Shown here piece by piece: positions 32,350 through 56,042 of a DNA stretch of 64,000 nt. The translations under genes and the position numbers were made by a program. Position 1 is the stretch's first letter; each line of letters begins with the position of its first letter. The notes below the pieces were generated by a model that saw nothing but the letters and a program-made list of their open reading frames with translations, did not search any database and was not told the origin of the DNA. The stretch comes from an uncultured Gammaproteobacteria bacterium. GTDB lineage: Bacteria > Pseudomonadota > Gammaproteobacteria > Steroidobacterales > Steroidobacteraceae. Where the stretch lies: the NCBI GenBank assembly GCA_963762315.1, contig CAVXKO010000004.1, positions 1,305,707-1,369,706 of the forward strand. The letters run 5' to 3'.

Positions 32350-33219
32350 TTACCGGAAGATCACCGTCCGGCTGCCGTTGAGGAACACGCGATGTTCCGT
32401 GTCCAGCCGCACCGCCCGCGACAACGCTCGGCGCTCCGAATCCCGGCCCGCGGCCACCAGCATGTCCGGCGTATACGCATGATCCACGTGCTCGACGATC
32501 TGCTCGATGATCGGGCCTTCGTCGAGATCCGCCGTCACGTAGTGCGCCGTGGCGCCGATGACCTTCACGCCGCGGTCGTACGCCTGGTGGTACGGCTTGG
32601 CGCCCTTGAAGCCCGGCAGGAACGAATGGTGGATGTTGATCGCGCGGCCGCGCAGCTTGCCGCACAGGTCGTCCGAGAGGATCTGCATGTAGCGCGCCAG
32701 CACCACGAGATCCGTCTTCGTGGAGTCGATCAGTTCGAGCAGCTTCTGCTCCTGCTGGGGCTTCGTCTGCGGCGTGACCGGCAGGTGGAAGAACGGGATG
32801 CGATGCTGCGCCGCCGTCGGCTGCAGCGTGACGTGGTTCGAAACGATGGCCGTGATGTCCATCTTCAGCTCGCCGATGCGGTGGCGGTAAAGCAGGTCCT
32901 CGAGGCAGTGGTCGTAGTTCGACACCATGATCAGCACGCGGGCGCGCTGGCTGGAATCGTGGATCTGCCACTCCATGTCCTCGGCGTCCGCGACGGCCTG
33001 GAACTCGGCGCGCAGCTTCGCGAGATCGACCGGCTCGCCCACCACGCCGCAGAACGTGACGCGGACGAAGAAGCGCTGGGAGATCGTGTCGTCGAACTGC
33101 TGCATCTCGACGATGTAGAAACGCCGGCTGGCGAGGAACGCCGTGACGCGGGCCGTGGTGCCCATGCGGCTGGCGCAGGTGGCGGTCAGGACGTACGGGT
33201 GCTCGATGTTGAAACTCAT
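32350..33219 (-). CDS. purU: Formyltetrahydrofolate deformylase
   Basis: ACT-like N-domain, then ARYMQILSDDLCGKLRGRAINIHHSFLPGFKGAKPYHQAYDRGVKVIGATAHYVTADLDEGPII (formyl-transferase core). ATG at 33219. Confidence 0.9.
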   Translation of the reverse strand: MSFNIEHPYVLTATCASRMGTTARVTAFLASRRFYIVEMQQFDDTISQRFFVRVTFCGVVGEPVDLAKLRAEFQAVADAEDMEWQIHDSSQRARVLIMVSNYDHCLEDLLYRHRIGELKMDITAIVSNHVTLQPTAAQHRIPFFHLPVTPQTKPQQEQKLLELIDSTKTDLVVLARYMQILSDDLCGKLRGRAINIHHSFLPGFKGAKPYHQAYDRGVKVIGATAHYVTADLDEGPIIEQIVEHVDHAYTPDMLVAAGRDSERRALSRAVRLDTEHRVFLNGSRTVIFR

Positions 33220-33601
33220 GCCTCGCGCTCCAGCGGGCCCCAGCGGGGTCCGGTCGATTGTGCTGGGCGCGGAGATTGTCAGAATGCGACGCGTGGGCGC
33301 AAGCAACTTCGCGACGGAATCTTCTCCGCACGCGACGTGCCCGGGCTCCGGTAGAAAGCATGGACCCAGCGAAAAAAACGATTTGCGCCATGCCTCTCGC
33401 AGGCGCGCGGCCTTGCGGCGCGCCGACCGGCATCCGCAGCGATCCGGCCCCCTTTACAGTACCGGGCAAATGTCGCAAGGTGACAAGTGCATGTCGCCGC
33501 GGCACCACTTGTGGCCGTGGCGTGACCGTAACATCGCGCAACATCCCGGGGTTCGTCCCGGTACCTGCGCGCGACCGATCAGAGCCCGGAGTAAACGAGC
33601 G

Positions 33602-34303
33602 ATGAGTGACGAGCAATCGGAAGCATTCGACCTCAACAGCCTGAACGACCAGGAACTGACCGAGCAGGTCCACGACGACCTCTACAACGGCCTGAAGGAC
33701 GAGGTCGTCGAGGCGACGAACCTGTTCCTGCAGCGCGGCTGGGGGCCCGACAAGGTCCTCAACGACGCTCTGGTCGAAGGCATGCGCATCGTCGGCATCG
33801 ACTTCCGTGACGGCATCCTGTTCGTCCCCGAGGTGCTGCTCGCCGCCAACGCCATGAAGGCGGGCATGGAGATCCTGCGCCCCCTCCTCGCCGAGACCGG
33901 CGCGGAACCCATCGGCAAGGTCGTGATCGGCACCGTCAAGGGCGACATCCACGACATCGGCAAGAACCTCGTCTCGATGATGCTCGAGGGCGCCGGCTTC
34001 GAAGTGATCAACATCGGCATCAACAACCCGGTCGAGAACTACCTCGCAGCGCTCGAAGAGCACCAGCCGGACATCCTCGGCATGTCCGCGCTGCTCACGA
34101 CGACGATGCCGTACATGAAGGTCGTCATCGACACGCTCAAGCAGAAGGGCCTGCGCGACAAATACATCGTGCTCGTCGGCGGAGCCCCTCTCAACGAGGA
34201 GTTCGCCACGGCCGTCGGCGCGGACGCCTATTGCCGCGACGCTGCCGTCGCCGTGGAGACCGCCAAGGCACTGATTGCCGCGCGTCGCGCCGCGGCGCGC
34301 TGA
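33602..34303 (+). CDS. Cobalamin-binding corrinoid protein (MtbC/MtgC-like: B12-binding_2 cap plus Rossmann B12-binding domain)
   Basis: DxHxxG motif in GTVKGDIHDIGKNLV; downstream MSALLTTT and VLVGGAPL motifs. 233 aa. Confidence 0.85.
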   Translation: MSDEQSEAFDLNSLNDQELTEQVHDDLYNGLKDEVVEATNLFLQRGWGPDKVLNDALVEGMRIVGIDFRDGILFVPEVLLAANAMKAGMEILRPLLAETGAEPIGKVVIGTVKGDIHDIGKNLVSMMLEGAGFEVINIGINNPVENYLAALEEHQPDILGMSALLTTTMPYMKVVIDTLKQKGLRDKYIVLVGGAPLNEEFATAVGADAYCRDAAVAVETAKALIAARRAAAR

Positions 34304-34311
34304 CGTGGTCG

Positions 34312-34959
34312 ATGTCGAGTGACGCGCCCGTCCTGATCATCGCCTGCGGAGCACTCGCCCGCGAGATCGTGGCGTTGAAGCGCGTCAACGGCTGGTCGGG
34401 GATGGACGTGCAGTGCCTACCGCCGGAGTTGCACAACCGTCCCGAACAGATTCCAGCGGCCGTGCAGCAAGCGATCGACGAAGCGCGCGGCCGTCATGCC
34501 CGCATCTTCGTTGCGTACGCGGACTGCGGCACAGGCGGCAGGCTGGACGCCGTGCTGCAGGCCGAAGGCATCGAACGGCTGCCGGGCGCGCACTGCTACG
34601 AGTTCTACGCCTCGTCCGCGGCGTTCGAGAAGCTGGCCGACGAGGAACCCGGCACGTTCTACCTGACGGACTTCCTGGTGCGCCACTTCGACCGCCTAGT
34701 GATCGAGGGCCTCGGGATCGACAGGCACCCGGAGCTGACCGGCGAGTACTTCCGCAACTACCGGCGGCTCGTCTACCTCGTGCAATCGCAAGACGCGGAA
34801 CTGTCCGCAGCGGCGCGAGTCGCGGCGGGAAAACTCGGACTGGCCTATGAAGAACGCCACACCGGCTACGGTGAACTCGCGACGGGCCTCGAGTCCGCCG
34901 TGCGTCCGTCGAACGGGCCGTCCACGGGCACTGAAAAGAGGGTTGCATGGCATCGTTGA
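34312..34959 (+). CDS. DUF1638-like protein (family that co-occurs with corrinoid methyltransferase systems)
   Basis: VLIIACGALAREI...VQCLPPELHNRPEQIP...YADCGTGG...PGAHCYEF pattern as I recall for DUF1638. Starts 9 nt after the corrinoid gene stop. Confidence 0.6.
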   Translation: MSSDAPVLIIACGALAREIVALKRVNGWSGMDVQCLPPELHNRPEQIPAAVQQAIDEARGRHARIFVAYADCGTGGRLDAVLQAEGIERLPGAHCYEFYASSAAFEKLADEEPGTFYLTDFLVRHFDRLVIEGLGIDRHPELTGEYFRNYRRLVYLVQSQDAELSAAARVAAGKLGLAYEERHTGYGELATGLESAVRPSNGPSTGTEKRVAWHR

Positions 34960-35297
34960 TCATCATTTCCTGGCGTGACGTCCCGGCCCAGGTCATCGTG
35001 AAGCGCGGCCGGGAGGTTGCGAAAGTGCAGCTCTCGATGCGCTTCCAGGAAGCAGTCGATCGCGCCGCCATGCGCGCCGGCCGCGGCAGCTCCGACGCCT
35101 ATCTCGAGGATTGGCAGCGCAGCCCGCCGACCCCCTGTGGCGACGACCTCCGGGCCGAGGCCGACAAGGCCGCGGCGGACATCGAAGCCCGGTACACGGA
35201 TGACGACCTCCTGCGCCTGATCCGCGCCAAGGGCATCGACGAGAACAAGGCGCAGGGGGCACCTGCGAGCCCCGCCACGGACAGCGGGTCGCCCTGA
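34947..35297 (+). CDS. Small conserved protein of unknown function (resembles the family often auto-annotated 'virulence factor' next to MetV/MetF)
   Basis: 116 aa, MASLIIISWRDVPAQVIVKRGREVAKVQLSMRFQEAVDRAAMRAG. Overlaps the upstream gene by 13 nt and shares one base (TGATG) with the downstream gene, which implies translation within the operon. Confidence 0.4.
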   Translation: MASLIIISWRDVPAQVIVKRGREVAKVQLSMRFQEAVDRAAMRAGRGSSDAYLEDWQRSPPTPCGDDLRAEADKAAADIEARYTDDDLLRLIRAKGIDENKAQGAPASPATDSGSP

Positions 35298-35755
35298 TGT
35301 ACGCGGTGCGCCTCTGGTCCGTGCGCCATGCGCGAGGCCTCTCGCGCGTCTACGCGGGATTCGAATCCGTGCTGATGAAGCTCGCCCCGTTGTTCGAGAA
35401 GATCGGCTACCAGCGCATGGAGCGCCCGGTGGCGGCGGTCGAGCATGCGGTCAAGGGCCTGCTGTTCGACTGCAAGATGTGCGGTCGCTGCGTGCTCAGC
35501 TCGACCGGCCTCTCCTGCCCGATGAACTGCCCCAAGCAGCTGCGCAACGGCCCTTGCGGCGGTGTGCGCGCCAACGGCAACTGCGAAGTGAAGCCCGAGA
35601 TGCGCTGCGTGTGGGTCGAGGCGTGGCAAGGCGCCGAGAGGATCCCGGGCGGCCTCGAGGCGATCAGCGTCGTGCAGGCGCCGGTCGACCGGCGGCTCGA
35701 AGGCACGTCTGCGTGGCTGCGCGTCGCTCGCGAGAAGAGCGGAGCCGCCAAGTGA
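35297..35755 (+). CDS. Methylenetetrahydrofolate reductase C-terminal-domain protein (MetV-like, Cys-rich)
   Basis: CKMCGRCVLSSTGLSCPMNCPKQLRNGPCGGV cysteine cluster typical of MTHFR_C / MetV. 152 aa. Confidence 0.7.
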   Translation: MYAVRLWSVRHARGLSRVYAGFESVLMKLAPLFEKIGYQRMERPVAAVEHAVKGLLFDCKMCGRCVLSSTGLSCPMNCPKQLRNGPCGGVRANGNCEVKPEMRCVWVEAWQGAERIPGGLEAISVVQAPVDRRLEGTSAWLRVAREKSGAAK

Positions 35756-35833
35756 TCTTCGAAGACGAGCCGGTACCGGGCTACCCGCTGCCGATCCTGC
35801 CCGGGCACACCTCGCCCGGGCCGGTTCGAGCGC

Positions 35834-36772
35834 GTGTTGCGCGCCGGTGCGTTCGCCATCACGGCGGAACTCGCGCCGCCGGACTCCGCCGATCCCGACG
35901 AAGTCTACAAGCGGGCTCGGGTATTCGACGGCTACGTCGACGCCATCAATGCGACGGACGGCAGCGGCGCGAACTGCCACATGTCGAGCATGGCCGTGTG
36001 CGCCCTGCTCACCCGCGTCGGCTACGCGCCGGTGATGCAGATCTCCTGCCGCGACAAGAACCGCATCGCCATCCAGGGCGACATCCTCGGTGGGGCCGCG
36101 ATGGGTGTCTGCAACATGCTTTGCCTGACGGGCGACGGCGTGCAGGCCGGCGACCACCCGCAGGCCAAGGCCGTGTTCGACCTCGATTCGGTGTCGCTGC
36201 TCGGCATCGCGCGCGGCCTGCGCGACGACCACCATTTCGAAAGCGGGCGCAAAGTCACTTTCGCGCCGCGCGTGTTCTTCGGCGCGGCCGAGAATCCGAG
36301 TGTGCCGCCCGTCGAGCACCGCATGCGCCGACTGGCCAAGAAGGTGGCGGCCGGCGCGCAGTTCATCCAGACGCAGTACTGCTACGACATGGACCTGCTG
36401 CGCGCGTTCATGAAAGGCGTCGAGGATGCCGGGTTGCTCGACAAGGTGTTCATCCTGATCGGCGTCGGGCCGCTGCGCTCCGCCAAGGCCGCCGACTGGA
36501 TGCGCACCAACGTCCCGGGCATCCACATTCCGGACGCCATCGTAAACCGCCTGAAAGGCGCGCAGGACCAGGCCCGCGAAGGCCGCGACCTCTGCGTCGA
36601 CCTCATCCAGGAAGCCCGCTCCATCAAGGGCGTGGCCGGCGTCCACGTCATGGCCTACCGGCAGGAGGAATCCGTCGCCGAGGTCATCGACCGCTCGGGC
36701 GTCCTCGGCGGCCGCGTGCCGTGGTACCCGGGCCGCGACGCACAGATCAACGAAGACAGGAAGACATCATGA
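35834..36772 (+). CDS. metF: Methylenetetrahydrofolate reductase (MetF-type catalytic subunit); the true start may be GTG 35752 if a frameshift near 35818 is corrected
   Basis: AFAITAELAPPDSADP...YVDAINATDGSGA...QISCRDKNRIA...LCLTGDG...AQFIQTQYCYD are MTHFR TIM-barrel motifs. The only in-frame start is GTG 35834, which would cut the conserved RFERVLRAG segment. Confidence 0.8.
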   Translation: MLRAGAFAITAELAPPDSADPDEVYKRARVFDGYVDAINATDGSGANCHMSSMAVCALLTRVGYAPVMQISCRDKNRIAIQGDILGGAAMGVCNMLCLTGDGVQAGDHPQAKAVFDLDSVSLLGIARGLRDDHHFESGRKVTFAPRVFFGAAENPSVPPVEHRMRRLAKKVAAGAQFIQTQYCYDMDLLRAFMKGVEDAGLLDKVFILIGVGPLRSAKAADWMRTNVPGIHIPDAIVNRLKGAQDQAREGRDLCVDLIQEARSIKGVAGVHVMAYRQEESVAEVIDRSGVLGGRVPWYPGRDAQINEDRKTS

Positions 36773-37695
36773 CCGACACCGTCATCAGCTCCGCGACCCG
36801 CGAGGTCGTCATCGGCTTCGATCGCCCGTTCGTCATCATCGGCGAGCGCATCAACCCGACCGGCCGCAAGCTGCTCGCCGCGGAAATGGCCGCCGGCGAC
36901 TTCAGCCGCGTCGAATCCGATGCGCTGGCGCAGGTTGCGGCCGGCGCCCACATGCTCGACGTCAATGCCGGCATCCCGCTCGCCGACGAGCCCGCCATCC
37001 TCGCCAAGGCCGTGCAGCTGGTGCAGTCGATCACCGACGTGCCGCTCTCGATCGACTCCTCGATCGTCGCCGCGCTCGCTGCCGGCCTCGCGGTCTACAA
37101 GGGCAAGGCGCTGGTGAACTCGGTGACGGGCGAAGAAGATCGCCTCGAGACGGTGCTGCCCCTGGTCAAGAAGTACGGCGCGGCGGTCGTCGCCATCTCG
37201 AACGACGAGACCGGCATCTCCGAAGACCCGGACGTGCGCTTCGAGGTGGCGAAGAAGATCGTGCACCGCGCGATGGACCACGGCATCCCGGCGTCCGACG
37301 TCGTCGTCGACCCGCTCGTGATGCCGATCGGCGCCATCAACCAGGCCGGCGTGCAGGTCATGCGCCTCGTGAAGCGGCTCAAGGACGAACTGAAGGTCAA
37401 CACGACCTGCGGCGCCTCGAACGTCAGCTTCGGCCTGCCCGCGCGCGACGGCATCAACAGCGGCTTCCTCACGATGGCCATCGCTTCGGGCCTGACGTCC
37501 GCGATCACCAACCCGCTGCACGGCGACATCGTCCGCGCCTGCATGGCCGCGGACGTGATGATGGGTCACGACCCGGACTGTGCGCGCTGGATCCGCCGGT
37601 TCCGCGAAGTCCCGGCTCCGGGTGCCCCGGGCGCAGGCGGCGACGCGCCGCGCGGCCGCCGCGAAGGCGGACACCGTCGCCGTCCCACCCCTTGA
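36769..37695 (+). CDS. Pterin-binding methyltetrahydrofolate:corrinoid methyltransferase (MtrH/AcsE/MetH-pterin-domain family)
   Basis: FVIIGERINPTGRKLL, LDVNAG, SIDSS, ALVNSVTGE and CGASNVSFGLP motifs. The ATG overlaps the metF stop (ATGA). Confidence 0.8.
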   Translation: MTDTVISSATREVVIGFDRPFVIIGERINPTGRKLLAAEMAAGDFSRVESDALAQVAAGAHMLDVNAGIPLADEPAILAKAVQLVQSITDVPLSIDSSIVAALAAGLAVYKGKALVNSVTGEEDRLETVLPLVKKYGAAVVAISNDETGISEDPDVRFEVAKKIVHRAMDHGIPASDVVVDPLVMPIGAINQAGVQVMRLVKRLKDELKVNTTCGASNVSFGLPARDGINSGFLTMAIASGLTSAITNPLHGDIVRACMAADVMMGHDPDCARWIRRFREVPAPGAPGAGGDAPRGRREGGHRRRPTP

Positions 37696-37711
37696 GCCTG
37701 AGGCAGATCGC

Positions 37712-39721
37712 TTGAGTCCGCAGGATCCGCTCGTCGTCTTCACGCCCTCCGGCAAGCGCGGACGCTTTGCCGTGGGCACGCCGCTGCTCACCGCCGCGCG
37801 CCTGCTCGGCGTCGACATCGATTCGGTGTGCGGCGGGCGTGCGATCTGCGGCCGCTGCCAGGTGCTGGTGGCGGAAGGCGAATTCGCCAAGCACGGCGTT
37901 CGCTCGAGCGCCGCGAGCCTGACGGAAGTCTCGGCGACGGAAAAGCGCTACGGCGAACGCAAGGGCCTCGCAGCAGGCTGCCGCTTGTCCTGCCAGGCGA
38001 AGGTCCAGGGCGACGTCGTGGTGGACGTGCCGCAGAACAGCCAGGTGCACCGCCAGGTCGTGCGCAAGGAAGCCGAGGCGCGCGACATCGAGCTGTATCC
38101 GCTCGTGAAGCTCCACTACGTCGAAGTCGCGGAGCCCGACATGCACGATCCTTCGGGGGACCTGCAGCGGCTCGAGCTGGCGCTGGCGCGCGAGTGGCAG
38201 CTGAAGAACCTCGAGTGCGACCTCACCACGTTGCAGCAGCTGCAGCCGATCCTGCGCGCCGGCGACTGGAAGGTCACCGTCGCCGTGCACGACGAGTCGC
38301 GCATCATCGCGGTGTGGCCGGGCTTCCACGAAACGGCGTTCGGCATGGCCGTGGACGTCGGCTCGACCACGATCGCGGCGCACCTGTGCGATCTCGTCAC
38401 CGGCGAAGTGGTGACCTCCGCGGGCCGCATGAACCCGCAGATCCGCTTCGGCGAAGACCTCATGAGCCGCGTGTCGTACTCGATGATGAACCCGGGCGGC
38501 GCGGCGCAGATGACTGCGGCCGTGCGCGAGGCGCTCAGCCAGTTGGCTGGCGAGGTGGCTGCGGCCGCCGGCGTCGAACGTGAATCGATCGTCGAGGCGA
38601 CGATCGTCGGTAACCCGATCATGCACCACCTCGTGCTCGGCATCGATCCGGTCGAGCTCGGCGGCGCGCCCTTTGCGCTGGCAATCGATCGTGCGGTGAC
38701 GGTGACGGCCGCCGAGATCGGCGTCGCCCTGCATCCGAATGCGCGGGTCTACGCCCTGCCCTGCATCGCCGGGCACGTGGGCGCGGACACGGCGGGGGTG
38801 ATCCTGGCCGAGCGGCCCGACCTCACCGACGAGATGACCCTGCTCGTGGACGTCGGCACCAACGCCGAAATCGTCCTTGGCAACCGGCAGAAGCTGGTGG
38901 CCTGCTCGAGCCCGACGGGGCCTGCGTTCGAAGGCGCGCAGATCAGCTGCGGCCAGCGCGCGGCGCCCGGCGCCATCGAGCGCGTACGGATCGATCGCGA
39001 GACGCTGGAGCCGCGCTTCAAGGTCATCGGGTCGGACCTGTGGTCCGACGATCCTGAATTTGCCGTCGCGACGGCGGGAACCGGCGTCACGGGCGTGTGC
39101 GGCTCCGGCATCATCGAAGTGATCGCCGAAATGTACCTCGCTGGCATCCTGACGCAGGACGGCGTGATCGACGGATCCCTGGCCGCCAAGTCACCCCGCG
39201 TCGTCGCGAACGGCCGCACGTTCTCCTACGTGCTGCACCATGGCGCGCAGATGCTCAGCATTACCCAGAACGACGTGCGCGCCATCCAGCTCGCCAAGGC
39301 GGCCCTGATGGCCGGCATCCGGCTGTTGATGGAACGCCTCGGCGTCGAGAAGGTGGATCGCATCCGCCTGGCGGGCGCGTTCGGAGCCCACATCGACGTC
39401 ATGTACGCCACGGTGCTCGGCATGATCCCGGACTGCGACCTGACGAAGGTCACGTCGGCGGGCAACGCCGCGGGGACAGGCGCACGTATCGCCCTGCTCG
39501 ATTCGCGCTCTCGCGAAACCATCGAGAACCTCGTGCGGCGCGTGGAGAAGATCGAGACTGCCATCGAGCCGCGCTTCCAGGAGCACTTCGTCGAGGCGAT
39601 GTCGATTCCGCACAAGACAGCGGACTACCCGAACCTGCGCAAGGTCGTGGAACTGCCGGCGCCGAAGGTGCTGGCTCAGTCGTCGCCTGACGGACGGGAA
39701 CGCCGCAACCGCCGGAAATAG
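37712..39721 (+). CDS. Corrinoid reductive-activation protein (RACo/RamA-like): N-terminal plant-type [2Fe-2S] ferredoxin plus ASKHA ATPase domain
   Basis: CGGRAICGRCQV ... CRLSCQ cysteine pattern. ASKHA-like segments GMAVDVGSTTIAAHL and LLVDVGTNAEIVLG. TTG 37712 lies 8 nt after GAGG. The track ORF start at 37580 overlaps the previous gene by 116 nt and is less likely. Confidence 0.8.
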   Translation: MSPQDPLVVFTPSGKRGRFAVGTPLLTAARLLGVDIDSVCGGRAICGRCQVLVAEGEFAKHGVRSSAASLTEVSATEKRYGERKGLAAGCRLSCQAKVQGDVVVDVPQNSQVHRQVVRKEAEARDIELYPLVKLHYVEVAEPDMHDPSGDLQRLELALAREWQLKNLECDLTTLQQLQPILRAGDWKVTVAVHDESRIIAVWPGFHETAFGMAVDVGSTTIAAHLCDLVTGEVVTSAGRMNPQIRFGEDLMSRVSYSMMNPGGAAQMTAAVREALSQLAGEVAAAAGVERESIVEATIVGNPIMHHLVLGIDPVELGGAPFALAIDRAVTVTAAEIGVALHPNARVYALPCIAGHVGADTAGVILAERPDLTDEMTLLVDVGTNAEIVLGNRQKLVACSSPTGPAFEGAQISCGQRAAPGAIERVRIDRETLEPRFKVIGSDLWSDDPEFAVATAGTGVTGVCGSGIIEVIAEMYLAGILTQDGVIDGSLAAKSPRVVANGRTFSYVLHHGAQMLSITQNDVRAIQLAKAALMAGIRLLMERLGVEKVDRIRLAGAFGAHIDVMYATVLGMIPDCDLTKVTSAGNAAGTGARIALLDSRSRETIENLVRRVEKIETAIEPRFQEHFVEAMSIPHKTADYPNLRKVVELPAPKVLAQSSPDGRERRNRRK

Positions 39722-39724
39722 GGA

Positions 39725-39840
39725 AAAATAGGGGACATTCTCGGTTTTCGAAAAAAGGGGGACATTCTCGGTTTTTGAAAGCAGGGAAGAAAACCGAGAA
39801 TGTCCCCCTTTTTTCGAAAACCGAGAATGTCCCCTATTTT
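39725..39840. repeat. Composite palindrome, copy 2 of 2 (same GGGGACATTCTCGGTTTT cores); fills the gap between two convergent stop codons
   Basis: Arms 39725..39776 and about 39790..39840 are reverse complements (one unpaired base next to the loop). It is flanked by TAG 39719-39721 (+ gene) and TGA 39840-39842 (minus gene). Confidence 0.9.
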
Positions 39841-41423
39841 CAGATGTTGGAGTCGGGAGCCGCGGCCTTGCGGCGGTCGATGAAGTCGACGAGCGCGTCG
39901 TCGATCGCCGGATCGAGCGGGGGCGCGACGTATTCCTCGAGCTGCTTCTTCCAGTACGCATTGGCGCGGTGCGCCATGTCGAGCGAGCCCTCGGCCTGCC
40001 ACTGCTCGAAGCTGTTGTTGTCCGCGAGCGGCGAGCGGTAGAACGCGCCCTCGAAATTGGCCTGCGTGTGCGCGCAACCGAGGAAGTGGTTGCCGTGGCC
40101 GACCTCGGCGATCGCGTCCATGGCCTGGCCGTTCTCCGACAGGTCCACGCCCGCCAGCAGCGTGTGCATCATCCCGGCCTGGTCCGCGTCCATCACGAAC
40201 TTCTCGTAACCCATCGCGAGGCCGCCCTCGAGCCAGCCCGCGGTGTGCAGCACGAAGTTCACGCCGGCGAGGCAGGTCGGGAGCAGCGTCTGAGCCGACT
40301 CGAAAGCCGCCTGCGCGTCCGGAATCTTGGCGGCACATAGACTGCCGCCCGAGCGGAACGGCACGCCGAGACGGCGCGCCAGCGCGGCCATGATGTAGAG
40401 CACCAGCGCGGGCTCGGGCGTGCCGAACGTCGGCGCGCCGGACTGCATCGACATCGACGAGGCGAAGCTGCCAAGCACGACCGGGGCGCCGGGGCGCACG
40501 AGCTGCGCGAAGGCCATGCCGGCGAGGGCCTCGGCCAGCGTCTGCGCCGCCGTGCCGGCCACGGTCACCGGCGACATCGCACCCGAGAGGATGAACGGCG
40601 TGATGATCGTGGCCTGGTTGGCGCGCGCATAGACCTTCAGCGCGCCGAGCATCGTCGCGTCGTAGATCAGCGGCGAGTTCACGTTGATCAGGCTGATCAA
40701 CAGCGTCTTCGGAAGGCCGGTGGCCGGGTCGTCCGCTTCGGCACCGAAGGCAAGGCGCGCCATCTCGACGCTGTCCTCGGCGCGCTCGGGGGCCGTCACG
40801 GAGCCCATGAACGGCTTGTCGCTGTACTTGACGTGCGTGTACACCATGTCGAGGTGACGCTTGTTCACCGGCAGGTCCACCGGCTCGCAGATCGTGCCGC
40901 CCGAGTGGTGCAGCGAGTTCGCCATGTAGGCGAGCTTCACGAAGTTGCGGAAGTCGTCGAGGCGCGCGTACCGGCGGCCTTCGTCGATGTTGTAGATGAA
41001 CGGCGAACCGTACGCCGGCGCGAACACGGTGGCGTCCCCGCCGATCCGCACGCTGCGAGCGGGATTGCGCGCGTGCTGCACGAACTCGCGCGGGGCGTTC
41101 TTCTGCACCAGCTCGCGGCACATGCCGCGCGGAAACTTGACGATCTCGCCGTTGACGTCGGCGCCCGCCCTCTTCCAGATCGCGAGGGCCTCGGGATCGT
41201 CGCGGAAGATGATGCCGGTCTCCGCGAGGATCGTCTCGGCGTTGCGCTCGATGAGGGCCAGGCCCTCCTCGTTCAGCACCTCGAATCGCGGGATGGCACG
41301 GACGATGTACGGCACGGAGGCCGAGGCTCGCGCCGCCCGCGCGGCCCGCTTGGCGTCACGGCCGTGGCGCAGCGCGCGCTTCTCCGCCGGCTGCCCGCCC
41401 GCGTTGGATTCCGTATCTGACAT
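39840..41423 (-). CDS. MttB-superfamily methyltransferase, non-pyrrolysine type, intact (candidate quaternary-amine:corrinoid methyltransferase)
   Basis: 527 aa uninterrupted with no in-frame TAG. Collinear with copy 1. Family-typical segments NSPLIYDATMLGAL, ITPFILSGAMSPVT, HTAGWLEGGL and GHGNHFLGCAHT. Confidence 0.85.
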   Translation of the reverse strand: MSDTESNAGGQPAEKRALRHGRDAKRAARAARASASVPYIVRAIPRFEVLNEEGLALIERNAETILAETGIIFRDDPEALAIWKRAGADVNGEIVKFPRGMCRELVQKNAPREFVQHARNPARSVRIGGDATVFAPAYGSPFIYNIDEGRRYARLDDFRNFVKLAYMANSLHHSGGTICEPVDLPVNKRHLDMVYTHVKYSDKPFMGSVTAPERAEDSVEMARLAFGAEADDPATGLPKTLLISLINVNSPLIYDATMLGALKVYARANQATIITPFILSGAMSPVTVAGTAAQTLAEALAGMAFAQLVRPGAPVVLGSFASSMSMQSGAPTFGTPEPALVLYIMAALARRLGVPFRSGGSLCAAKIPDAQAAFESAQTLLPTCLAGVNFVLHTAGWLEGGLAMGYEKFVMDADQAGMMHTLLAGVDLSENGQAMDAIAEVGHGNHFLGCAHTQANFEGAFYRSPLADNNSFEQWQAEGSLDMAHRANAYWKKQLEEYVAPPLDPAIDDALVDFIDRRKAAAPDSNI

Positions 41424-41546
41424 GGCGACCGTCTCCCGGCTGCTAGGAGATCAGTATGGTCAGCCCGCCCCAGGGGGGCTGATCAATTTGCGACAAAGAC
41501 ATGCCTGTGCGCGCCATGGCCCGGCGCGCACGGGCCTGCCGTGCGA

Positions 41547-43901
41547 TCAGGGCACGCCGAAGCGGTACGTCCCGCTCAGGCCATACCAGCGGGGCTTGGC
41601 ATACACGCCGGCCACCACGCCCGCGAACAGCGAGCTGTCGAACGCGTACAACCGGTACTTCTCTTCGAAAAGGTTGCTCACGAACGCCGCGACGCCCCAG
41701 CGGCCACTGCCGCTCTCGTAGCTCAGGCGGGCATTCGCCACGGTGTACGAATCCTCCTCTTCCACCGGCGCGCACAGCACCGTGAAGCAGAAGCTGCTCG
41801 AGTACTGGACGTCGCCCTGGATGCCGAACGTGCCACCCGCGACGCCGAACTCGTACCGGGCCAGCGCATTGCCGGAGAATTCCGGGGTCTGCGGCAGCTC
41901 GTGGTCCTCGACCGTCACGCCGTCCGGCAGCGGCACGTCCTTGACCGTCGAATCGAGGAACGACGCAGCGACCTGCAGCGTCAGCCCCTCGATCGGCCGC
42001 GACATGAGTTCCGCCTCGAGGCCGGTGATGTTCGCGTCGAGGTTGATCACGGTCTGCACCGGCCCGAACTGCGCGAAAGCCTGGTAATCGGAGTAGTCGT
42101 AGTAGAACGCCGCCAGGTTCAGCGTGGTCGTGCCGCCGAGCGTCGACTTGACGCCGATCTCGTAGGCATCCAGCGTCTCCTCGTCGAACGGAATGCCGTC
42201 GAGGAAGACGCGCGGATTGTCGCCGCTGCCATCGGGGTCGAACGGCGTGCCCGTCGAGAACGTATAGCCGCCGCTCTTGCTGCCGCGGTTGAAGCTTCCA
42301 TAGAGCAGCAGATTGTCGGTCGGCTTCCAGTCGAGCTGCACACGCGCGGTGATTCCGTCGAAGCTGTGGGTGGCATCGCCCGGAGTCAGGTCGCTGCCGA
42401 GCGGAAAGACCTCGTTCTTGTTGAAGATGATCGTGACGGGCGCCGACAGCGGCGGCGCGCCCTCGGACGGTGGAGGCACTTCCGGCGCGGTGCCGAAATA
42501 GCTGCCTTCGCGCTCGTCGCTCCAGTAGCGCGCGCCGACGATCAGCTTCCAGGCGTCGGCAAAGGCCCATTCGTCCTGCGCGAATACCGCGTAGGAGGTC
42601 GTCTTCTGGGTCATCTCGACCGTCGGGTCGTAGCCGTAGAACGGATCGGCAAACTTGCCGGTGTAGTCGCCGTCGACCTTCATGCCGTACACGCCCGCCA
42701 CCCACGTGTGTGCGCCGGATTGGCCCGACAGCCGGAATTCCTGCGAGTACTGGTCGAGGTCGCTGCCCTGGTAGAACAGTACGCCGTCGACCGGCGAGGC
42801 ATCGCCGCCTTCGAGGTAGAACTTCTCGCCGTGCTGCCAGTCGGTGATCGAGATCAGGTGCAGTGCATCGCCGATGTCCCAGTCGAAGTGCAGCGTGGCG
42901 CCGGTGATCTCGCGGTCCACGTAGGAGCGCTGCGTCTCCGCAGTCTTCCAGGGGTCGCCGCCCCATTGCGGCGTAATGGCGTCGTTGCGATATCCCGTGC
43001 CGGCCTCACCGGGCCCGGTGCCCCAGAACGCACAGGACTGGTCCTGCCGCGTGAATTCGCCCTGGAACCGGTCGTTCGGGCAGGCCGGCGCCATCGAGTA
43101 CAGGCCCGCCTGCGTCTCCTTGTTCGCCTTCATGTAGCGGACGATCAGGTTCAGGTCCGTGGCGTCCGAAGGCTGCCACGACAGCTGGCCGCGGACCGAG
43201 TACTGGTCGTTGCCTCCGCGGTCGCCGACGCCCGGGATGACGGACTCCATGTATCCATCGTCCTGGTTGCTGATCGCGGCGATGCGTGCCTGCACCTTGT
43301 CGCCGAGCGGGCCCGAGACCGCACCCTCGAGGATCCACTGGTTGTAGCTGCCGACGGTCGCGGTCGCGTAACCCGTGAAATAGTCGGTCGGCTTGTTCGA
43401 CACGAACTGGATTGCGCCGCCCGTCGCATTGCGGCCGAACAGCGTGCCCTGCGGACCGCGCAGCACTTCCACGCGCGCCAGGTCGAAGATCGGGAAGCTC
43501 GCCATGTTGATCGAGCTCGAGTAGCTGTCGTCCTGGTAGACGGCGACGGGCGGCTCCTGCTGGTCGCCGTAGTCGTTCTGCGATACGCCGCGGATGTTGA
43601 ACACCACCTGCGAAGACGAATACGCATTCATCTTGAGGCTGGGCACCGCGCGCGCGATGTCCGTGGCCGTCGTGATGTTGAGGTCGGTCAGCATCTGGTT
43701 TCCGAGCACCGTGACCGCAATGCCGACGTCCTGCAGCTTTTCTTCACGGCGTTGCGCGGTCACCACGACTTCCTCGATTCCCGTCGTCGCGGAGGCTTCC
43801 TGTGCCAGGGCCGCATGCGGCGCACAGGCGAGCGCCACGGCCGAGCCCACGAGGGAACCTGAAATACGACTCACTACGGATGGACAGCGTCGGACGACCA
43901 T
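41547..43901 (-). CDS. TonB-dependent outer-membrane receptor
   Basis: ATG 43901 after GGGAG. Signal peptide ...ALACAPHAALAQE. Plug motif IEEVVVTAQRREEKLQDVGIAVTVL. 784 aa, ending in a YRF-type strand. Confidence 0.9.
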   Translation of the reverse strand: MVVRRCPSVVSRISGSLVGSAVALACAPHAALAQEASATTGIEEVVVTAQRREEKLQDVGIAVTVLGNQMLTDLNITTATDIARAVPSLKMNAYSSSQVVFNIRGVSQNDYGDQQEPPVAVYQDDSYSSSINMASFPIFDLARVEVLRGPQGTLFGRNATGGAIQFVSNKPTDYFTGYATATVGSYNQWILEGAVSGPLGDKVQARIAAISNQDDGYMESVIPGVGDRGGNDQYSVRGQLSWQPSDATDLNLIVRYMKANKETQAGLYSMAPACPNDRFQGEFTRQDQSCAFWGTGPGEAGTGYRNDAITPQWGGDPWKTAETQRSYVDREITGATLHFDWDIGDALHLISITDWQHGEKFYLEGGDASPVDGVLFYQGSDLDQYSQEFRLSGQSGAHTWVAGVYGMKVDGDYTGKFADPFYGYDPTVEMTQKTTSYAVFAQDEWAFADAWKLIVGARYWSDEREGSYFGTAPEVPPPSEGAPPLSAPVTIIFNKNEVFPLGSDLTPGDATHSFDGITARVQLDWKPTDNLLLYGSFNRGSKSGGYTFSTGTPFDPDGSGDNPRVFLDGIPFDEETLDAYEIGVKSTLGGTTTLNLAAFYYDYSDYQAFAQFGPVQTVINLDANITGLEAELMSRPIEGLTLQVAASFLDSTVKDVPLPDGVTVEDHELPQTPEFSGNALARYEFGVAGGTFGIQGDVQYSSSFCFTVLCAPVEEEDSYTVANARLSYESGSGRWGVAAFVSNLFEEKYRLYAFDSSLFAGVVAGVYAKPRWYGLSGTYRFGVP

Positions 43902-43923
43902 GACGGACTCCCAGGGTGACGGA

Positions 43924-45132
43924 TCAGGTGAAAGCGTGGGCGCGGGCGTCGCTCGTGGCGAGCGCGCGCAGGACTTCAGTCGGGCCGCAGACACCGCGCA
44001 CGCTGCCGGACTCCGCGAGCAGCACGGGTTGGCCGGCTCGGCACCATTGGATCAGTTGGCGCAACGGCGTTTCGATGTCGGCGACGAGCATCCCCGTGCC
44101 GTCCTCGCCCGCCGAGCGCAGCGAAATCGACTCGCCATCGCGCGTGGCCGCGAGCGGGCGGCCTTGGGCATCGATCGTGGCGGAAAACTGGCGCGCCGGA
44201 TCGAGCCAGCGCCGCTCGCCGTCGGTCTGCAGATCGGACAGCGGCTTCATGACCATGCGACCGTTCAGCACCGACAGCGGGTTCATGTGCTGCACGAACT
44301 CGCCGACATACGCGTTGGCCGGTCGCAGCACGATGTCCTCGGGCGTGCCGGTCTGCACGATGCGCCCGCCTTCGAGGACGGACGTCTGGTTGCCGAGCTT
44401 CAACGCCTCGTCGAGATCGTGCGTCACGAACAGGATGGTCTTGCGCACGCGCGCCTGCAGCGCCAGCAGCTCGTCCTGCAGCTTGGTCCTGATCAGTGGA
44501 TCGAGCGCCGAGAACGGTTCGTCCATCAGCAGGATCGGTGCGTCGGTCGCAAAGGCTCGCGCCAGGCCCACGCGTTGCTGCATGCCGCCCGACAGCTCGT
44601 GTCCGTACCGATCCGCCCAGCGCTCCAGGCCGACGAGCTCGAGTTTCTCGTCCACGATGCGTTTGCGAGCATCCTCGGAGTCGCCGCGCAGCTCGAGGCC
44701 GAGCCCCACGTTCTCGCGCACGGTGCGCCAGGGCAGCAGGCCGAACTGCTGGAAGATCATCGCGATCGAGCCGCGGCGCAGCCGGCGCAGGTCGGCCGCG
44801 CTGCAACTGGCGACGTCGACGTGCTTCTCCCCGTCGTACACGAGCACGTGTCCGCGCGTGACGCGATTGAGGCCGTTGGCCGCGCGCAGCAGCGTCGACT
44901 TGCCGGAGCCGGATAACCCCATGAGCACGGAGATCTGCCCGCGCTGCACGGTGAGGCTCGCCTGGCTGACGCCGACGACGACGCCTGTCGCCGACTCGAT
45001 CTCGGTCCGGTTCTTGCCGCCGTCGAGCTGGCCGAGCGCCGTCCTGATCGAGGCATCGCGCTTCCTTCCCGACAGGCTCTTGCTCGGGAACAGGATGTCG
45101 ACCTTGTCGAACTCGACCGCCGCGGCGCTCAT
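43924..45132 (-). CDS. proV: Glycine betaine/proline betaine-type ABC transporter ATP-binding protein with C-terminal CBS-like region
   Basis: Walker A GLSGSGKST, signature LSGGMQQRVGLARA, Walker B ILLMDEPFSALD. About 130 aa C-terminal extension as in ProV/OpuAA. Confidence 0.9.
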   Translation of the reverse strand: MSAAAVEFDKVDILFPSKSLSGRKRDASIRTALGQLDGGKNRTEIESATGVVVGVSQASLTVQRGQISVLMGLSGSGKSTLLRAANGLNRVTRGHVLVYDGEKHVDVASCSAADLRRLRRGSIAMIFQQFGLLPWRTVRENVGLGLELRGDSEDARKRIVDEKLELVGLERWADRYGHELSGGMQQRVGLARAFATDAPILLMDEPFSALDPLIRTKLQDELLALQARVRKTILFVTHDLDEALKLGNQTSVLEGGRIVQTGTPEDIVLRPANAYVGEFVQHMNPLSVLNGRMVMKPLSDLQTDGERRWLDPARQFSATIDAQGRPLAATRDGESISLRSAGEDGTGMLVADIETPLRQLIQWCRAGQPVLLAESGSVRGVCGPTEVLRALATSDARAHAFT

Positions 45133-46989
45133 TCATCCCCCTTGCGATCCGGTGGCCGGCTGATCCGATCGAGCATGATCGCGAGCAGCACGATCGCGAG
45201 GCCAGCCTCGAAACCCATACCGACCTGCACGGTGTTGAGCGCCCGCACGACCGGCACACCGAGGCCTCCCGCGCCGACCAGCGCTGCAATGACGACCATC
45301 GACAGGCTCAGCATGATGCACTGGGTGACGCCGGCGAGGATCATCGGCCCCGCACTCGGCAGTTCGACCTTGAACAGCAACTGCAACGGCGTGGCGCCGA
45401 ACGCCTGTCCTGCCTCGCGCAGCGTCTTCGGCACCGACGAGATGCCGAGTTGCGTGAGGCGAATCGGCGCCGGCAACGCGAAGATGATCGTCGAGATCAG
45501 GCCCGGCACGACGCCGAGCCCGAACAGGACCAGCGTCGGCGTCAGGTAGACGAACGTCGGCAGCGTCTGCATCAGGTCGAGCACCGGTCGCATTGCGGCG
45601 TAGACCCTCGGGCGCTTGGCGCCCCAGATGCCGAGCGGCACGCCGATCACCGTCGCGATGAATGCCGCAACCAGCACCAGCGTAAGCGTCTCGAGCGTCG
45701 CATCCCAGTAGCCCTGGTTCATGATGAAGAGCAGCGACAGGATGACGAACACGACGAGCCCGATGGACCTGCGCACGGCGTAGGCGATGGCGGCCAGGGC
45801 CAGGATCAGCATCGGCGCCGGCATCGCGTTCAGCACCCATGCCACGGCCCGTGTACAGCCCGTGAGCACGCTCGCGACGCCGTCGAAGAAGCCGCGCGCG
45901 TGCTTCTTCGTGTATTCGACGAACCGCGTGGCCGTGTCGCCAACCGGGATCTTGTGCGCGGCCACCCAGTCGTCGAACCGCGGTCTGTGCCGCTTCGCTT
46001 TGGCCGTGCCGCGCAGCACGTCGAGCGCGGGCAGGCCGTCGTACGACTGCACGCCCTGCAACCACGGTTCCATGCGTGCGGGGCGCTTCGACACCCACTC
46101 GCGGGCCAGGTCCGCGGCGGACACCTTGTCCGTGAGGATACGATCCATGAAGCCGTTCTCGAGGTCGACGTCGAACTCGAGGTTCTTGAACAGTCGGCCA
46201 AGGTTGGGGCACTGTTCGACGTAACCCTTGCGCACCAGCGTGTTGACGGTCGCGGCGCCAAAGTCGGGGCCGAATGAATCGTCGCCGCCCGTCAGGTACT
46301 TGAGCGGGAAGTGCGTGTTCATCGGGTGCGGCGCCCAGGCGAGGAACACGATCGGCGACTTGCCCCGCACGGCCCGCTCGACCTGCGCCAGCATGCCCTG
46401 CTCGCTCGACTCCACGACCTTGAATCCAGCCGAGGCCGAACTCGTTCTTCTTGATCAGGTCGAGGATCAGTTCATTGCCGTCGTTGCCGGGCTCGATGCC
46501 ATAAATCGATGCCCCCAGCTCTTTTCTGAATTTGTTGATGTCGGCGAAATCCTTGAGGCCCTTCTCCCACAGGTAATCGGGCACCGCGAGGGTGTACTTC
46601 GCGCCGACGAGGTTCGGGCGCAGCGACTGGATCGAGCCGTCGTCGAGGTACGGCTGCAGCATCGGGCCCTGCGTGGGCATCCAGTTCGCGAGGAACACGT
46701 CCATGTCCCCGTTCTTCATGGACTGGAAGGTGACTGGCACGGACAGCACCGTGATCGACGGCTGGTAGCCGAGTTCCGTGAGGATCTGGGCCGTCACGGC
46801 GGTGGTGGCGGATTCGGCCGTCCAGCCCACGTCGGAGAGGCGGACCTTGCGGCAGCTCGGCGGATCCGCAGTCTCGGCCGAGGCCTGGCCGATGCCGACG
46901 ACGAACGCGCACACGAGAGCCGCAGCCGCAGCGTACGACCGCAATCCTCGGAGCAGCGTGGCCATGGCCGGCCGCCGGCTCGCATCCAT
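45129..46989 (-). pseudogene. Fused substrate-binding (ProX-like, N-terminal, signal peptide) and permease (ProW-like) ABC component; one frameshift near 46431
   Basis: The SBP part (VRLSDVGWTAESATTAVTAQILTELGY...KKNEFGL) is in one frame. AGFKVVESSEQGMLAQVERAVRGKSPIVFLAWAPHPMN continues without a stop into the permease (KIPVGDTATRFVEY..., EAA-like region TLREAGQAFGATPLQLLFKVELP) in the next frame. Confidence 0.75.
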
Positions 46990-47204
46990 TTTCGAGACCC
47001 CCTGATCTCCGCGTGTTATGGCGCATAGGTAACAGGCCCGGACGGGCCGCGTCAAACGTCGCCGCGAGAGACGCCTCGTTTAGCGCTGGCCGGGCTCGGG
47101 TTGCGTCGTATAATCTGCGCCGCTGCGCCACGGATTCGCGCATCCCATACCCACATGAAAGGCCGGATCGGCAGCGGCGTGATCCCGGCCCTGGAGCAGC
47201 TGCG

Positions 47205-47981
47205 ATGGAGATCAGGGATTTTGCGATGGACTTCTTCTCGCTCGCGGGCAAGAAGGCCATCGTCACGGGCGGCAACACCGGGCTCGGCCAGGCATTCACG
47301 CTGGCCCTCGCGAAAGCGGGCGCCGACGTGTTCGTGCCGAGCGTCATGGACGACGACGGCAAGACCGGGCCGCTCGTCGCGGAGACGGGACGCCGCTACG
47401 AGTACTTGAAGACCGACATCACGAAGCCCGGCGCGGCGGCCAGCGTGATCGACGAGTGCGTGAAGCGCTTCGGCAGCGTCGACATCCTCGTCAACAGCGC
47501 AGGCATCTGCCCGCTCGCCGAAGTCCTCGACTTCGGGCGGCCGCAATGGGACGCGACGGTTGCCGTGAATCTCACGGCCGCGTTCGAGCTCAGCTACGAA
47601 GCCGCGAAGAAGATGATTCCGCAGCAGAGCGGCAAGATCATCAACATCTGCTCGCTGTTTTCCTTCCTCGGCGGCCGCTGGTCGTCGGCCTATGCGGCGA
47701 CCAAGCACGGCCTCGCCGGCTTCACCAAGGCGTACTGCGACGAGCTCGCGATGCACAACATCCAGGTGAACGGCATCGCGCCCGGGTACTACGCGACCGA
47801 GATCACCCGCCAGACGCGCAGCAACCCGGAGACGAACCAGCGCGTGCTCGACCACATCCCGGCCGAGCGCTGGGGCGAGCCGGTCGACCTGATGGGAGCG
47901 CTCGTGTTCCTCGCGAGCCGTGCGTCGAACTACGTCAACGGCCACCTGCTCGTCGTCGACGGTGGCTATCTCGTTCGCTGA
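47205..47981 (+). CDS. SDR-family oxidoreductase (KduD / 2-deoxy-D-gluconate 3-dehydrogenase-like)
   Basis: AIVTGGNTGLGQA (TGxxxGxG), NSAG, and catalytic SSAYAATKHG (YxxxK). 258 aa. Confidence 0.85.
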   Translation: MEIRDFAMDFFSLAGKKAIVTGGNTGLGQAFTLALAKAGADVFVPSVMDDDGKTGPLVAETGRRYEYLKTDITKPGAAASVIDECVKRFGSVDILVNSAGICPLAEVLDFGRPQWDATVAVNLTAAFELSYEAAKKMIPQQSGKIINICSLFSFLGGRWSSAYAATKHGLAGFTKAYCDELAMHNIQVNGIAPGYYATEITRQTRSNPETNQRVLDHIPAERWGEPVDLMGALVFLASRASNYVNGHLLVVDGGYLVR

Positions 47982-47996
47982 GGCACGCATCCACGC

Positions 47997-49431: not shown

Positions 49432-49467
49432 CTCCGGCTCACGCCGCGACTTGAAAAGGATCGCACC

Positions 49468-50907: not shown

Positions 50908-50911
50908 CCTC

Positions 50912-52168: not shown

Positions 52169-52174
52169 GCGACC

Positions 52175-52462
52175 ATGCGTATCCCATGCCCATACTGCGG
52201 CCTGCGTAGCCACGACGAGTTCGTCTATTACGGCGACGCCACGCTGCGCAGGCCGGACGCGTCCGTGGCCGATGCCGAACGCGCGTTCTTCGAGTACGTC
52301 TACATCCGCGACAACCCGGCCGGCCCGCATCGCGAGCTGTGGTTCCACGCGGGCGGTTGCCACGAATGGCTGGTCGTCTCGCGCGACACCCGCACCCACG
52401 AGATCTCGGGAGCGGAGCCGGCGCGCGCATCGAATGCCGCTGCGGCGGGAGGCGTCCGATGA
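52175..52462 (+). CDS. soxD: Sarcosine oxidase delta subunit (operon 2)
   Basis: MRIPCPYCGLRSHDEFVYYGDA; 95 aa. Confidence 0.85.
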   Translation: MRIPCPYCGLRSHDEFVYYGDATLRRPDASVADAERAFFEYVYIRDNPAGPHRELWFHAGGCHEWLVVSRDTRTHEISGAEPARASNAAAAGGVR

Positions 52463-55441: not shown

Positions 55442-56042
55442 TGCAGCCAGGATGGAATTCCGGCCCGGCCAGTTCGGGCGCAAGACGGGCGCTCCGGGTG
55501 TCTCGATCCGCGAGATCACCGGATTTGCGCTGGCCAGCGTGCTCGCACGGCGAGGACAGCGCGATGCGGCGGCGGACGCTGCCGAACGGGCCTTTGGCGT
55601 GCGCCTGCCGGATCGCCCCAAGGCCGTCACCGGCCGCGGCATGACATTCATCGGCACCGGACCGGGCCAGTGGCTCGCGCTCGCCGAGCCGCCGCAAGAC
55701 GGAATCGAAGCCTGGGTTTCGGGCGCGCTGGCCGGAGCCGTCTCGGTGTTCGAACAGAGCGACAGCCGCGTCATGCTGGAGTTGCGCGGCGACAAGGTGC
55801 GCGACATGCTCTCCAAGGGCGTGTCGGTCGACCTGCACCCTCGCGCCTTCAAGCCCGGCGACGCGGCGCTCACCACGGTCTCGCACCTGGCGGTGCAGAT
55901 CTGGCAGACCGACGCGGCCCCGGTGTACCGCCTGCTCGTTATCCGCACGTTTTTCGAAAGCTTCTGGAGTTGGCTCGCGTCGTCCGCGGCCGAATACGGA
56001 GCCGAGGTGCTCGAGCCGTCGCGGTATCCTGCCGCTGAGTAG
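55434..56042 (+). CDS. soxG: Sarcosine oxidase gamma subunit (operon 2)
   Basis: Position, size (202 aa from GTG 55434; alternative ATG 55452) and similarity of layout to the copy at 9659..10198. Confidence 0.8.
   Translation: MSDAARMEFRPGQFGRKTGAPGVSIREITGFALASVLARRGQRDAAADAAERAFGVRLPDRPKAVTGRGMTFIGTGPGQWLALAEPPQDGIEAWVSGALAGAVSVFEQSDSRVMLELRGDKVRDMLSKGVSVDLHPRAFKPGDAALTTVSHLAVQIWQTDAAPVYRLLVIRTFFESFWSWLASSAAEYGAEVLEPSRYPAAE

Follow-up and report, generated by a model that had tools for sequence, protein, structure and literature searches.

A TonB-dependent receptor encoded within the operon of a choline-type ATP-binding cassette (ABC) importer is proposed here, with moderate confidence, to provide the outer-membrane entry step of a system that scavenges and degrades choline and glycine betaine. 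The receptor gene lies in a 64-kb stretch of DNA (the window, meaning the whole stretch) from a soil gammaproteobacterium of the family Steroidobacteraceae with a G+C content of about 67%. It forms part of a run of four genes, choXW, choV, the receptor gene and mttB (Table 1), and our analysis covered the window together with up to 10 kb either side of receptor relatives in other genomes. The presumed ligand, choline or glycine betaine, is named from the gene neighbourhood alone. A pathway-dedicated outer-membrane step was considered the best reading because the receptor is tightly embedded in its operon, is not of the type of the cobalamin receptor BtuB and has orthologues that are linked to the same pathway across three orders.

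All four genes were located on the minus strand with Pfam domains in agreement, as a previous reading of the letters (the sequence-only reading) had described them, and the gaps given there were exact, namely an ATGA overlap between choXW and choV, 22 nt between choV and the receptor gene and 123 nt between the receptor gene and mttB. Both the genes and their spacings recur on a public contig (L081), which matches the window at 97% identity across 10.3 kb, and the same four-gene order was found again in 14 other genomes, indicating that this order is not due to chance. In related loci the gap between choV and the receptor gene measures 24–36 nt. In the window this gap is so short, at 22 nt including a GGGAG placed 6 nt ahead of the ATG, that neither a promoter nor a terminator would fit, which argues for translation of the receptor from the cho transcript and makes co-transcription of choV and the receptor gene very likely.

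Protein clusters at 65–97% identity to the receptor number more than 120, and their source names are Steroidobacteraceae, Woeseiaceae or unclassified Gammaproteobacteria. A scan of 185,579 species genomes (one genome per species) for the plug signature QNDYGDQQ / EPPVAVYQ returned 253 relatives, of which the best 80, each from a separate genome, were analysed. Each of these 80 species genomes holds one receptor of the family, and the orthologues, which are 54–97% identical, belong to the Steroidobacteraceae, Sphingomonadales and Caulobacteraceae. Over 67 full-length members from three orders, identity reaches 97% or more at 229 of 784 positions, a high degree of conservation for the TonB-receptor class of proteins. 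Neighbourhoods were mapped by tblastn and neighbour clustering, with a pathway gene counted at 50% identity or more. At least one choline/betaine pathway gene was present in 38 of the 44 loci that were fully flanked (8–10 kb on both sides), and the most frequent were betA and soxB (26 each), soxA (25), betB and the gene for dimethylglycine dehydrogenase (DMGDH; 24 each) and choW (23), followed by mttB (17).

Three arrangements of these genes were recognized. The first, that of the window, was found in 14 loci at 77–84% receptor identity as well as in L047 (62%), L081 and L083, and consists of genes for a short-chain dehydrogenase/reductase (SDR), an FGGY kinase and a flavin adenine dinucleotide (FAD) oxidase divergent from choXW-choV-receptor-mttB, followed by a convergent ramA...mtgC operon. 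The second, in most other Steroidobacteraceae (57–71% identity), runs DMGDH-soxB-D-A-G-receptor, with all genes co-oriented and separated by about 0–150 nt, then a convergent betA-betB pair and then choXW-choV-mttB. In the third, from Sphingomonadales (54–61% identity), betB-betA lie beside the receptor gene, which is directly followed by an amino acid-polyamine-organocation (APC) permease matching the 'TMAO permease' (trimethylamine N-oxide) equivalog (score 781, cut-off 690); in variants an ethanolamine permease (score 578, cut-off 382) immediately precedes the receptor gene, or choXWV adjoins it. Both soxA and soxG lie close to the receptor gene in a locus from Caulobacteraceae. Neighbouring genes of the relatives passed the equivalog cut-offs for BetA (802 > 732), BetB (738 > 593) and choline sulfatase (840 > 433). 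Because the operon partner changes while the neighbouring pathway stays, a classic signature of functional coupling, the receptor appears to be coupled to the whole route from choline through betaine, dimethylglycine and sarcosine to glycine, and not to MttB alone. The sequence-only reading had suggested an energised outer-membrane step dedicated to the MttB substrate. A step dedicated to the pathway is favoured by the embedding, the non-BtuB character and the synteny in three orders, whereas the low count for mttB relative to betA speaks against dedication to MttB as such.

The importer had previously been labelled a ProXWV/OpuA-type system, a label that the NCBIfam models do not bear out: choV scored 259 against a cut-off of 444 for ProV (NF007480), and the scores for ProW (245.7 against 439) and ProX (30.3 against 215) likewise fell far short. 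Its model matches place it instead among ABC systems of the ChoXWV (choline) type, in a form with ChoX fused to ChoW. Thresholds were passed by choV with the ChoV model TIGR03415 (486.7; cut-off 483.75) and by the permease part of choXW with the ChoW model TIGR03416 (386.8; cut-off 363), while the ChoX model TIGR03414 gave 206.2 and 185.6 on two frame halves of choXW, a sum of 391.8 (cut-off 379), and 433 in an intact relative (L068). The choXW product begins with a signal peptide cleaved between ...GQASA and ETAD, and its binding domain aligns over the full length with ChoX of Sinorhizobium meliloti (2REG; E 2e-100).

The aromatic cage of ChoX is formed by Trp43, Trp90, Tyr119 and Trp205, and a second site that includes Asp45 tells choline from its analogues (PMC5643546). 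All four cage residues and Asn156 are conserved in the window and in all aligned loci. Residues 45–46 were compared between loci L002–L012, L047 and L077 on the one hand and L016–L070 on the other. They are Ala-Glu in 10 of 10 aligned loci of the window arrangement, including L047, and likewise in the window itself (at about 46860–46850, read in the two frames), in contrast to Asp-Val or Asp-Ile in 18 of 18 loci of the other arrangements. Asp45 reportedly contacts the choline hydroxyl (Oswald et al. 2008). Among the best 120 database matches to the ChoX domain, 118 had a readable motif and 110 of these keep Asp; the remaining 8 have Ala-Glu and all stand within the eleven best matches (62–98% identity), so that among these 120 matches Ala-Glu was found in the closest relatives only and in no other taxon or context that could have given an independent hint of its ligand. 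As the lineage that has the receptor gene in its cho operon, and lacks betAB nearby, has also altered a ligand contact that is invariant elsewhere, its ligand may plausibly have shifted, for instance from choline to glycine betaine.

More tentatively, and with somewhat less than even confidence, we propose that the family represents the first TonB-dependent transporter for quaternary or methylated amines, serving trace scavenging in porin-poor soil and freshwater bacteria, and that in operons of the window type the move of the receptor gene into the cho operon and the Asp45 to Ala change together re-tuned the entire route across both membranes, away from choline and towards glycine betaine or a different betaine.

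The fourth gene of the run points to the fate of the imported compound. Its reading frame is uninterrupted and has no in-frame amber codon, hence no pyrrolysine. In comparisons with PDB entries it matched 4YYC (742 bits), 2QNE (423) and 9YCE, a 'glycine betaine methyltransferase' (422), but the true trimethylamine MttB 7XCL with only 141 bits, and it scored 260 against the TIGR02369 cut-off of 525. The product is accordingly best described as a putative non-pyrrolysine methyltransferase of the glycine-betaine (MtgB) type. Other members of the MttB family act on proline betaine, carnitine or phosphocholine (PMC12155760). A cognate corrinoid protein, a methyl-tetrahydrofolate transferase and activation functions are all encoded nearby (mtgC, mtgD, ramA and the DUF1638 gene), and MtgC models were the best NCBIfam matches for the corrinoid protein.

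Taken together, these genes would allow the following sequence of events. Choline or glycine betaine would bind the receptor, energy from TonB-ExbBD would open the plug and the ligand would enter the periplasm. The membrane-tethered ChoX domain of ChoXW would then capture the ligand and ChoV would power its import, glycine betaine being either imported directly or made from choline by BetA and BetB where these are encoded nearby. The MttB-family enzyme would demethylate glycine betaine onto the corrinoid protein MtgC, MtgD would hand the methyl group to tetrahydrofolate for oxidation by MetF2 and PurU, and RamA with the DUF1638 protein would keep the corrinoid reduced. Dimethylglycine would be converted, as judged by homology, by DMGDH and then SoxBDAG to glycine. 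The demethylation steps were assigned by homology to a system tested genetically in Ruegeria pomeroyi.

Several observations weigh against an outer-membrane step for choline or glycine betaine. The presumed ligands are very small (104–118 Da), and they cross porins in enteric bacteria. Six of the 44 fully flanked loci have no pathway partner, and in one of these six, Sphingomonas L050, the receptor gene faces a quinohemoprotein amine dehydrogenase operon outside the pathway, which is again an operon of amine catabolism. Within the 64-kb window no betA or betB homologue was found (at 35% identity or more over at least half the length), and Asp45, the choline-hydroxyl contact of ChoX, is replaced in operons of the window type; for these two reasons the ligand in the window may be something other than choline itself. 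In addition, choXW is frameshifted in the window, and an AlphaFold2 model of the receptor built on a 14-sequence alignment reached a mean predicted local distance difference test (pLDDT) score of 52.5, with the plug below 50, which is too poor for inspection of a binding site.

The first alternative to be weighed is that the receptor imports a larger choline compound, such as phosphocholine, glycerophosphocholine, choline-O-sulfate or an acyl- or sinapoyl-choline, which would be hydrolysed and the free choline passed to ChoXWV. This fits the usual role of TonB receptors, which serve ligands too big for porins, and a choline sulfatase lies 2–6 kb from the receptor gene in six loci and a secreted phosphoesterase of the phospholipase C (PLC)/AcpA family nearby in four. 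Such hydrolases are nevertheless present in a minority of loci and absent from the window, and the choline sulfatase, which lacks a signal peptide, would act after inner-membrane import. The consistent partners of the receptor are enzymes of free choline and betaine, and we therefore regard a larger ligand as unlikely, although it deserves to be kept in view.

The second alternative is a decaying operon, with a genuine frameshift in choXW and a transporter reduced to a pseudogene. The choXW gene, whose 1861 nt are not divisible by 3, is coding in two frames owing to an extra T at 46428 relative to L081, where choXW is intact with 619 codons; that this 1-nt insertion falls outside any homopolymer speaks for a genuine mutation. 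At least eight single-base frameshifts were however counted in conserved genes over the 64 kb, and codon bias is unbroken on both sides of the sites. L081, a short-read contig, is intact at both of the sites it covers, while the long-read-style contigs of two relatives (L082 and L083) are fragmented in like manner. The frameshifts are for these reasons probably indel errors of long-read assembly, and decay of the operon is improbable.

A third possibility, that a generic receptor for iron, siderophores or an unrelated nutrient came to lie in the locus by accident, has a slimmer chance still. The receptor is a regular member of its class, with a Plug domain (PF07715, 57.5 bits; cut-off 23.9), a barrel (PF00593, 140.5 bits; cut-off 27), a signal peptide and TonB box recognized by eye (...CAPHAALA followed by QEASATTGIEEVVVTAQRR), a TonB-box-like IEEVVVTAQRR near the N-terminus and an acidic/aromatic plug motif, QNDYGDQQEPPVAVYQDDSY. 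Automatic names call it an 'iron complex outermembrane receptor protein' and its best weak matches are siderophore receptors. These matches are far below cut-off (163 against 223.5 for the siderophore-subfamily model TIGR01783) and mostly confined to the plug, no curated NCBIfam receptor equivalog was reached, and a domain search found no N-terminal signalling domain of the FecR/FecI type. Solved receptor structures, of which FyuA was the best, matched the plug only. Moreover, an accidental location is difficult to reconcile with a link to one pathway that holds over three arrangements and three orders.

Least probable of all is a BtuB-like function in supplying cobalamin or another corrinoid for MtgC-dependent demethylation. 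The receptor gene does adjoin a corrinoid-dependent methyltransferase system in the window, and cobalamin demand rises during growth on betaine (PMC12478193). Yet the BtuB models remained far below cut-off (TIGR01779, 66.3 against 599.7; NF007926, 30.7 against 836), the PDB BtuB gave a plug-only match (E 1e-6) that was lost with the family profile at E 1e-8, and the receptor, with 784 aa, is longer than the mature E. coli BtuB chain whose structure is solved (594 aa). A cobalamin riboswitch, or any Rfam family at gathering score, was found neither in the window nor in six related loci, and many orthologues have betAB, sox or permease genes as neighbours but lack an mttB over the surrounding 10 kb. 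Clustering with BtuB, which the sequence-only reading had named as grounds for abandoning substrate uptake, is thus not supported, and on these comparisons the receptor is not BtuB-like.

Returning to the proposed entry of choline or glycine betaine, each of the surrounding systems has a known counterpart. The likeness to ChoXWV of S. meliloti consists in the ChoV, ChoW and ChoX model matches, the end-to-end alignment and the conserved cage and Asn156; the window differs in the fusion of binding protein and permease, in the change from Asp45-Val to Ala-Glu and in having a TonB receptor inside the operon. The aerobic MtgBCD system of R. pomeroyi shares MtgB, MtgC and MtgD, RamA, DUF1638 and a second MetF, with dimethylglycine and sarcosine genes nearby, but its description names a betaine/choline/carnitine transporter (BCCT) and mentions neither a TonB receptor nor an outer-membrane step (PMC12478193). 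In the window the corresponding genes are clustered with an outer-membrane receptor, and in a Steroidobacteraceae genome.

The choline catabolon that GbdR controls in Pseudomonas aeruginosa comprises betAB, gbcAB, dgcAB, soxBDAG and cbcXWV. The window follows the same pathway logic and has a GbdR-like AraC/DJ-1 regulator beside its genes (scoring 318, below the GbdR cut-off of 480), but here betaine demethylation would follow the corrinoid MttB route, the annotated genes included no gbcAB-type oxygenase, and the gene set is extended by a TonB receptor. TonB-dependent receptors for ligands other than iron reportedly include SuxA for sucrose, MalA for maltodextrin, NagA for N-acetylglucosamine and DdvT for a lignin dimer, and BtuB serves cobalamin. 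Like the non-iron receptors, that of the window has a plug and 22-strand-barrel architecture, sits in the locus of its presumed substrate and occurs in receptor-rich clades (sphingomonads, caulobacters and Xanthomonas-like gammaproteobacteria). It differs from them in having no close solved or curated relative and in its presumed ligand, a methylated amine that is small and either cationic or zwitterionic.

Known kinds are represented by the ABC system, by the corrinoid pathway for betaine and by TonB receptors alike, and what would be new is the predicted substrate class of the receptor family. The sequence-only reading knew of no TonB route for quaternary amines, and TonB-dependent uptake of choline, betaine or quaternary amines was likewise absent from the literature searched, which left most subscription journals uncovered, so that an earlier report is possible. 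Plants, algae and animals release choline and glycine betaine as major nitrogen-rich osmolytes, and to our knowledge the uptake of these compounds has been studied at the inner membrane only. If correct, the proposal would add a substrate class to TonB-dependent transport and account for the way in which receptor-rich clades such as Steroidobacteraceae, sphingomonads and caulobacters compete, in soil and water, for methylated amines that are present in traces. It would further provide a metagenome marker gene, by way of the plug signature used in our scan, and extend the recently described aerobic corrinoid demethylation of betaine to gammaproteobacteria that abound in soil. The accompanying change in ChoX would then amount to a natural experiment on ligand specificity.

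The spacer between the receptor gene and mttB contains a GC hairpin (41531–41507) just past the stop codon and without a U-tract, followed by a box, TTGTCGCAAATTGATCAG, at 41496–41479 on the minus strand, about 57 nt before the mttB start. After the box come a second hairpin, CCATACT and a hairpin that holds the mttB ribosome-binding site GGGAGA (41437–41432). The box is nearly invariant at the same place in L001–L013, L047, L077 and L081, and absent upstream of mttB in the other arrangements and from the rest of the window, while the hairpins around it vary in sequence from one genome to another. The box may serve as an operator or as part of a promoter. Since the 123-nt spacer holds both hairpins and an arrangement-specific box, mttB may have its own control, with read-through from the receptor gene also plausible. 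A structured RNA element was considered and rejected, as the RNAalifold consensus came to −10.6 kcal/mol, its covariation term being +0.48, the recurring hairpins stand in shifted registers, and Rfam returned chance-level matches only for the spacer. A sigma-70 reading of the box was dropped because the spacings are too long (22 nt), and a promoter and terminator scan gave nothing relevant.

The run ends at a long palindrome, as the sequence-only reading had stated, but the element is not specific to this operon, as a second copy lies elsewhere in the window. Each copy is about 110 nt long and situated just past a gene end. The palindrome, which at the end of the run has a fold energy of −91 kcal/mol (z −18.7), is built from two direct and two inverted copies of the 18-mer GGGGACATTCTCGGTTTT and is a dispersed element resembling repetitive extragenic palindromes (REP) or miniature inverted-repeat transposable elements (MITE); at the end of the run it probably acts as a bidirectional terminator.

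Table 1. Positions of the genes and other features discussed, numbered from the first letter of the window.
Feature	Position	Strand	Remarks
choXW	46989 (start)..45129 (stop)	-	OpuAC and BPD_transp_1 (Pfam); choline-type binding domain fused to permease
choXW, N-part	46989-46429	-	up to the 1-nt insertion
choXW, C-part	46427-45129	-	after the 1-nt insertion
choV, ABC ATPase	45132-43924	-	402 aa; ATG overlaps choXW stop codon
choV-receptor spacer	43902..43923	-	
TonB-dependent receptor gene	43901-41547	-	Plug and barrel
Receptor-mttB spacer	41424..41546	-	hairpins and conserved box
mttB homologue	41423-39840	-	527 aa; PF06253, 760 bits
Long palindrome	~39724-39841		perfect 51-bp stem; between convergent ramA and mttB stop codons
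Palindrome, second copy	3829-3934		
Convergent partner operon	33143..39721	+	Pfam; mtgC corrinoid protein, DUF1638, PF13769, methylenetetrahydrofolate reductase (MTHFR) C-terminal protein, metF2-type MTHFR, mtgD, ramA
mtgD, pterin-binding methyltransferase	36769-37695	+	
RamA/RACo activase	37580-39721	+	
purU	32350-33306	-	
GbdR-like AraC regulator	~17401-18400	+	frameshifted
DMGDH	~17193-14748	-	tblastn; frameshifted
soxB	14726-13481		tblastn; frameshifted
soxD	13468-13175		tblastn
soxA	13178-10191		tblastn
179-aa open reading frame (ORF) in soxG position	10198-9659		unannotated in window
Frameshift sites			soxB ~14160-14203; DMGDH ~16787; GbdR-like regulator ~17552; MTHFR ~35810; choXW 46428; FGGY kinase 49095; second soxA ~53635; second mttB ~23200-23300
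Second mttB paralogue	21846-23135	-	
DMGDH-like gene	19545-21323		broken
LysR regulator	23399-24502		
Unrelated TonB receptor	24342-27338		998 aa
Tetratricopeptide repeat (TPR)-sulfotransferase	27351-29426		
Trio and genes beyond it	47013-58415		divergent from choXW
soxB family, second set	50912-52168		
soxA-like, second set	~52339-55441		frameshifted
Flavin amine oxidase	56460-58415		
Insertion sequence (IS) transposase and small upstream ORF	62212-63326		rve integrase core, 283 aa

Among the receptor relatives, 16 Steroidobacteraceae loci (L017–L046 and L060) have a fusion of an Asp/Arg beta-hydroxylase with a sulfotransferase of about 620 aa after the receptor gene on the same strand (for example L027, 12326–14182), and choline sulfatase is the next gene after it in four of these loci (L022, L023, L037 and L040). 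Two receptor-carrying contigs are named after Gram-positive bacteria, L052 (NZ_QDFQ01000005.1, 'Arthrobacter sp. TPD3018'), which also holds sphingomonad-like betAB and soxB, and L053 (CAJCHR010000226.1, 'Actinobacteria bacterium 21-64-8'). Both look mislabelled or contaminated, as Gram-positives should have no outer-membrane receptor.

Elsewhere in the window, a 719-aa ORF after the sox genes (7695–9854), considered as a second receptor of the family by analogy with the soxG-linked arrangement of other loci, proved to be an AMP-binding enzyme. A second mttB paralogue, with 42% identity to the first, is situated upstream of a DMGDH-like gene that is broken, and a LysR regulator follows. Divergent from it are the genes for an unrelated TonB receptor (25% identical) and a TPR-sulfotransferase, and this region (19545–29426) may be a second pairing of receptor and MttB for another methylated amine. 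Divergent from choXW are the conserved trio of a KduD-like SDR, the FGGY kinase and a GlcD-like FAD oxidase, beyond which lie a second sarcosine-oxidase-like set and then a flavin amine oxidase gene. Near the end of the window the G+C content drops to about 62% at an IS transposase gene accompanied by a small upstream ORF.

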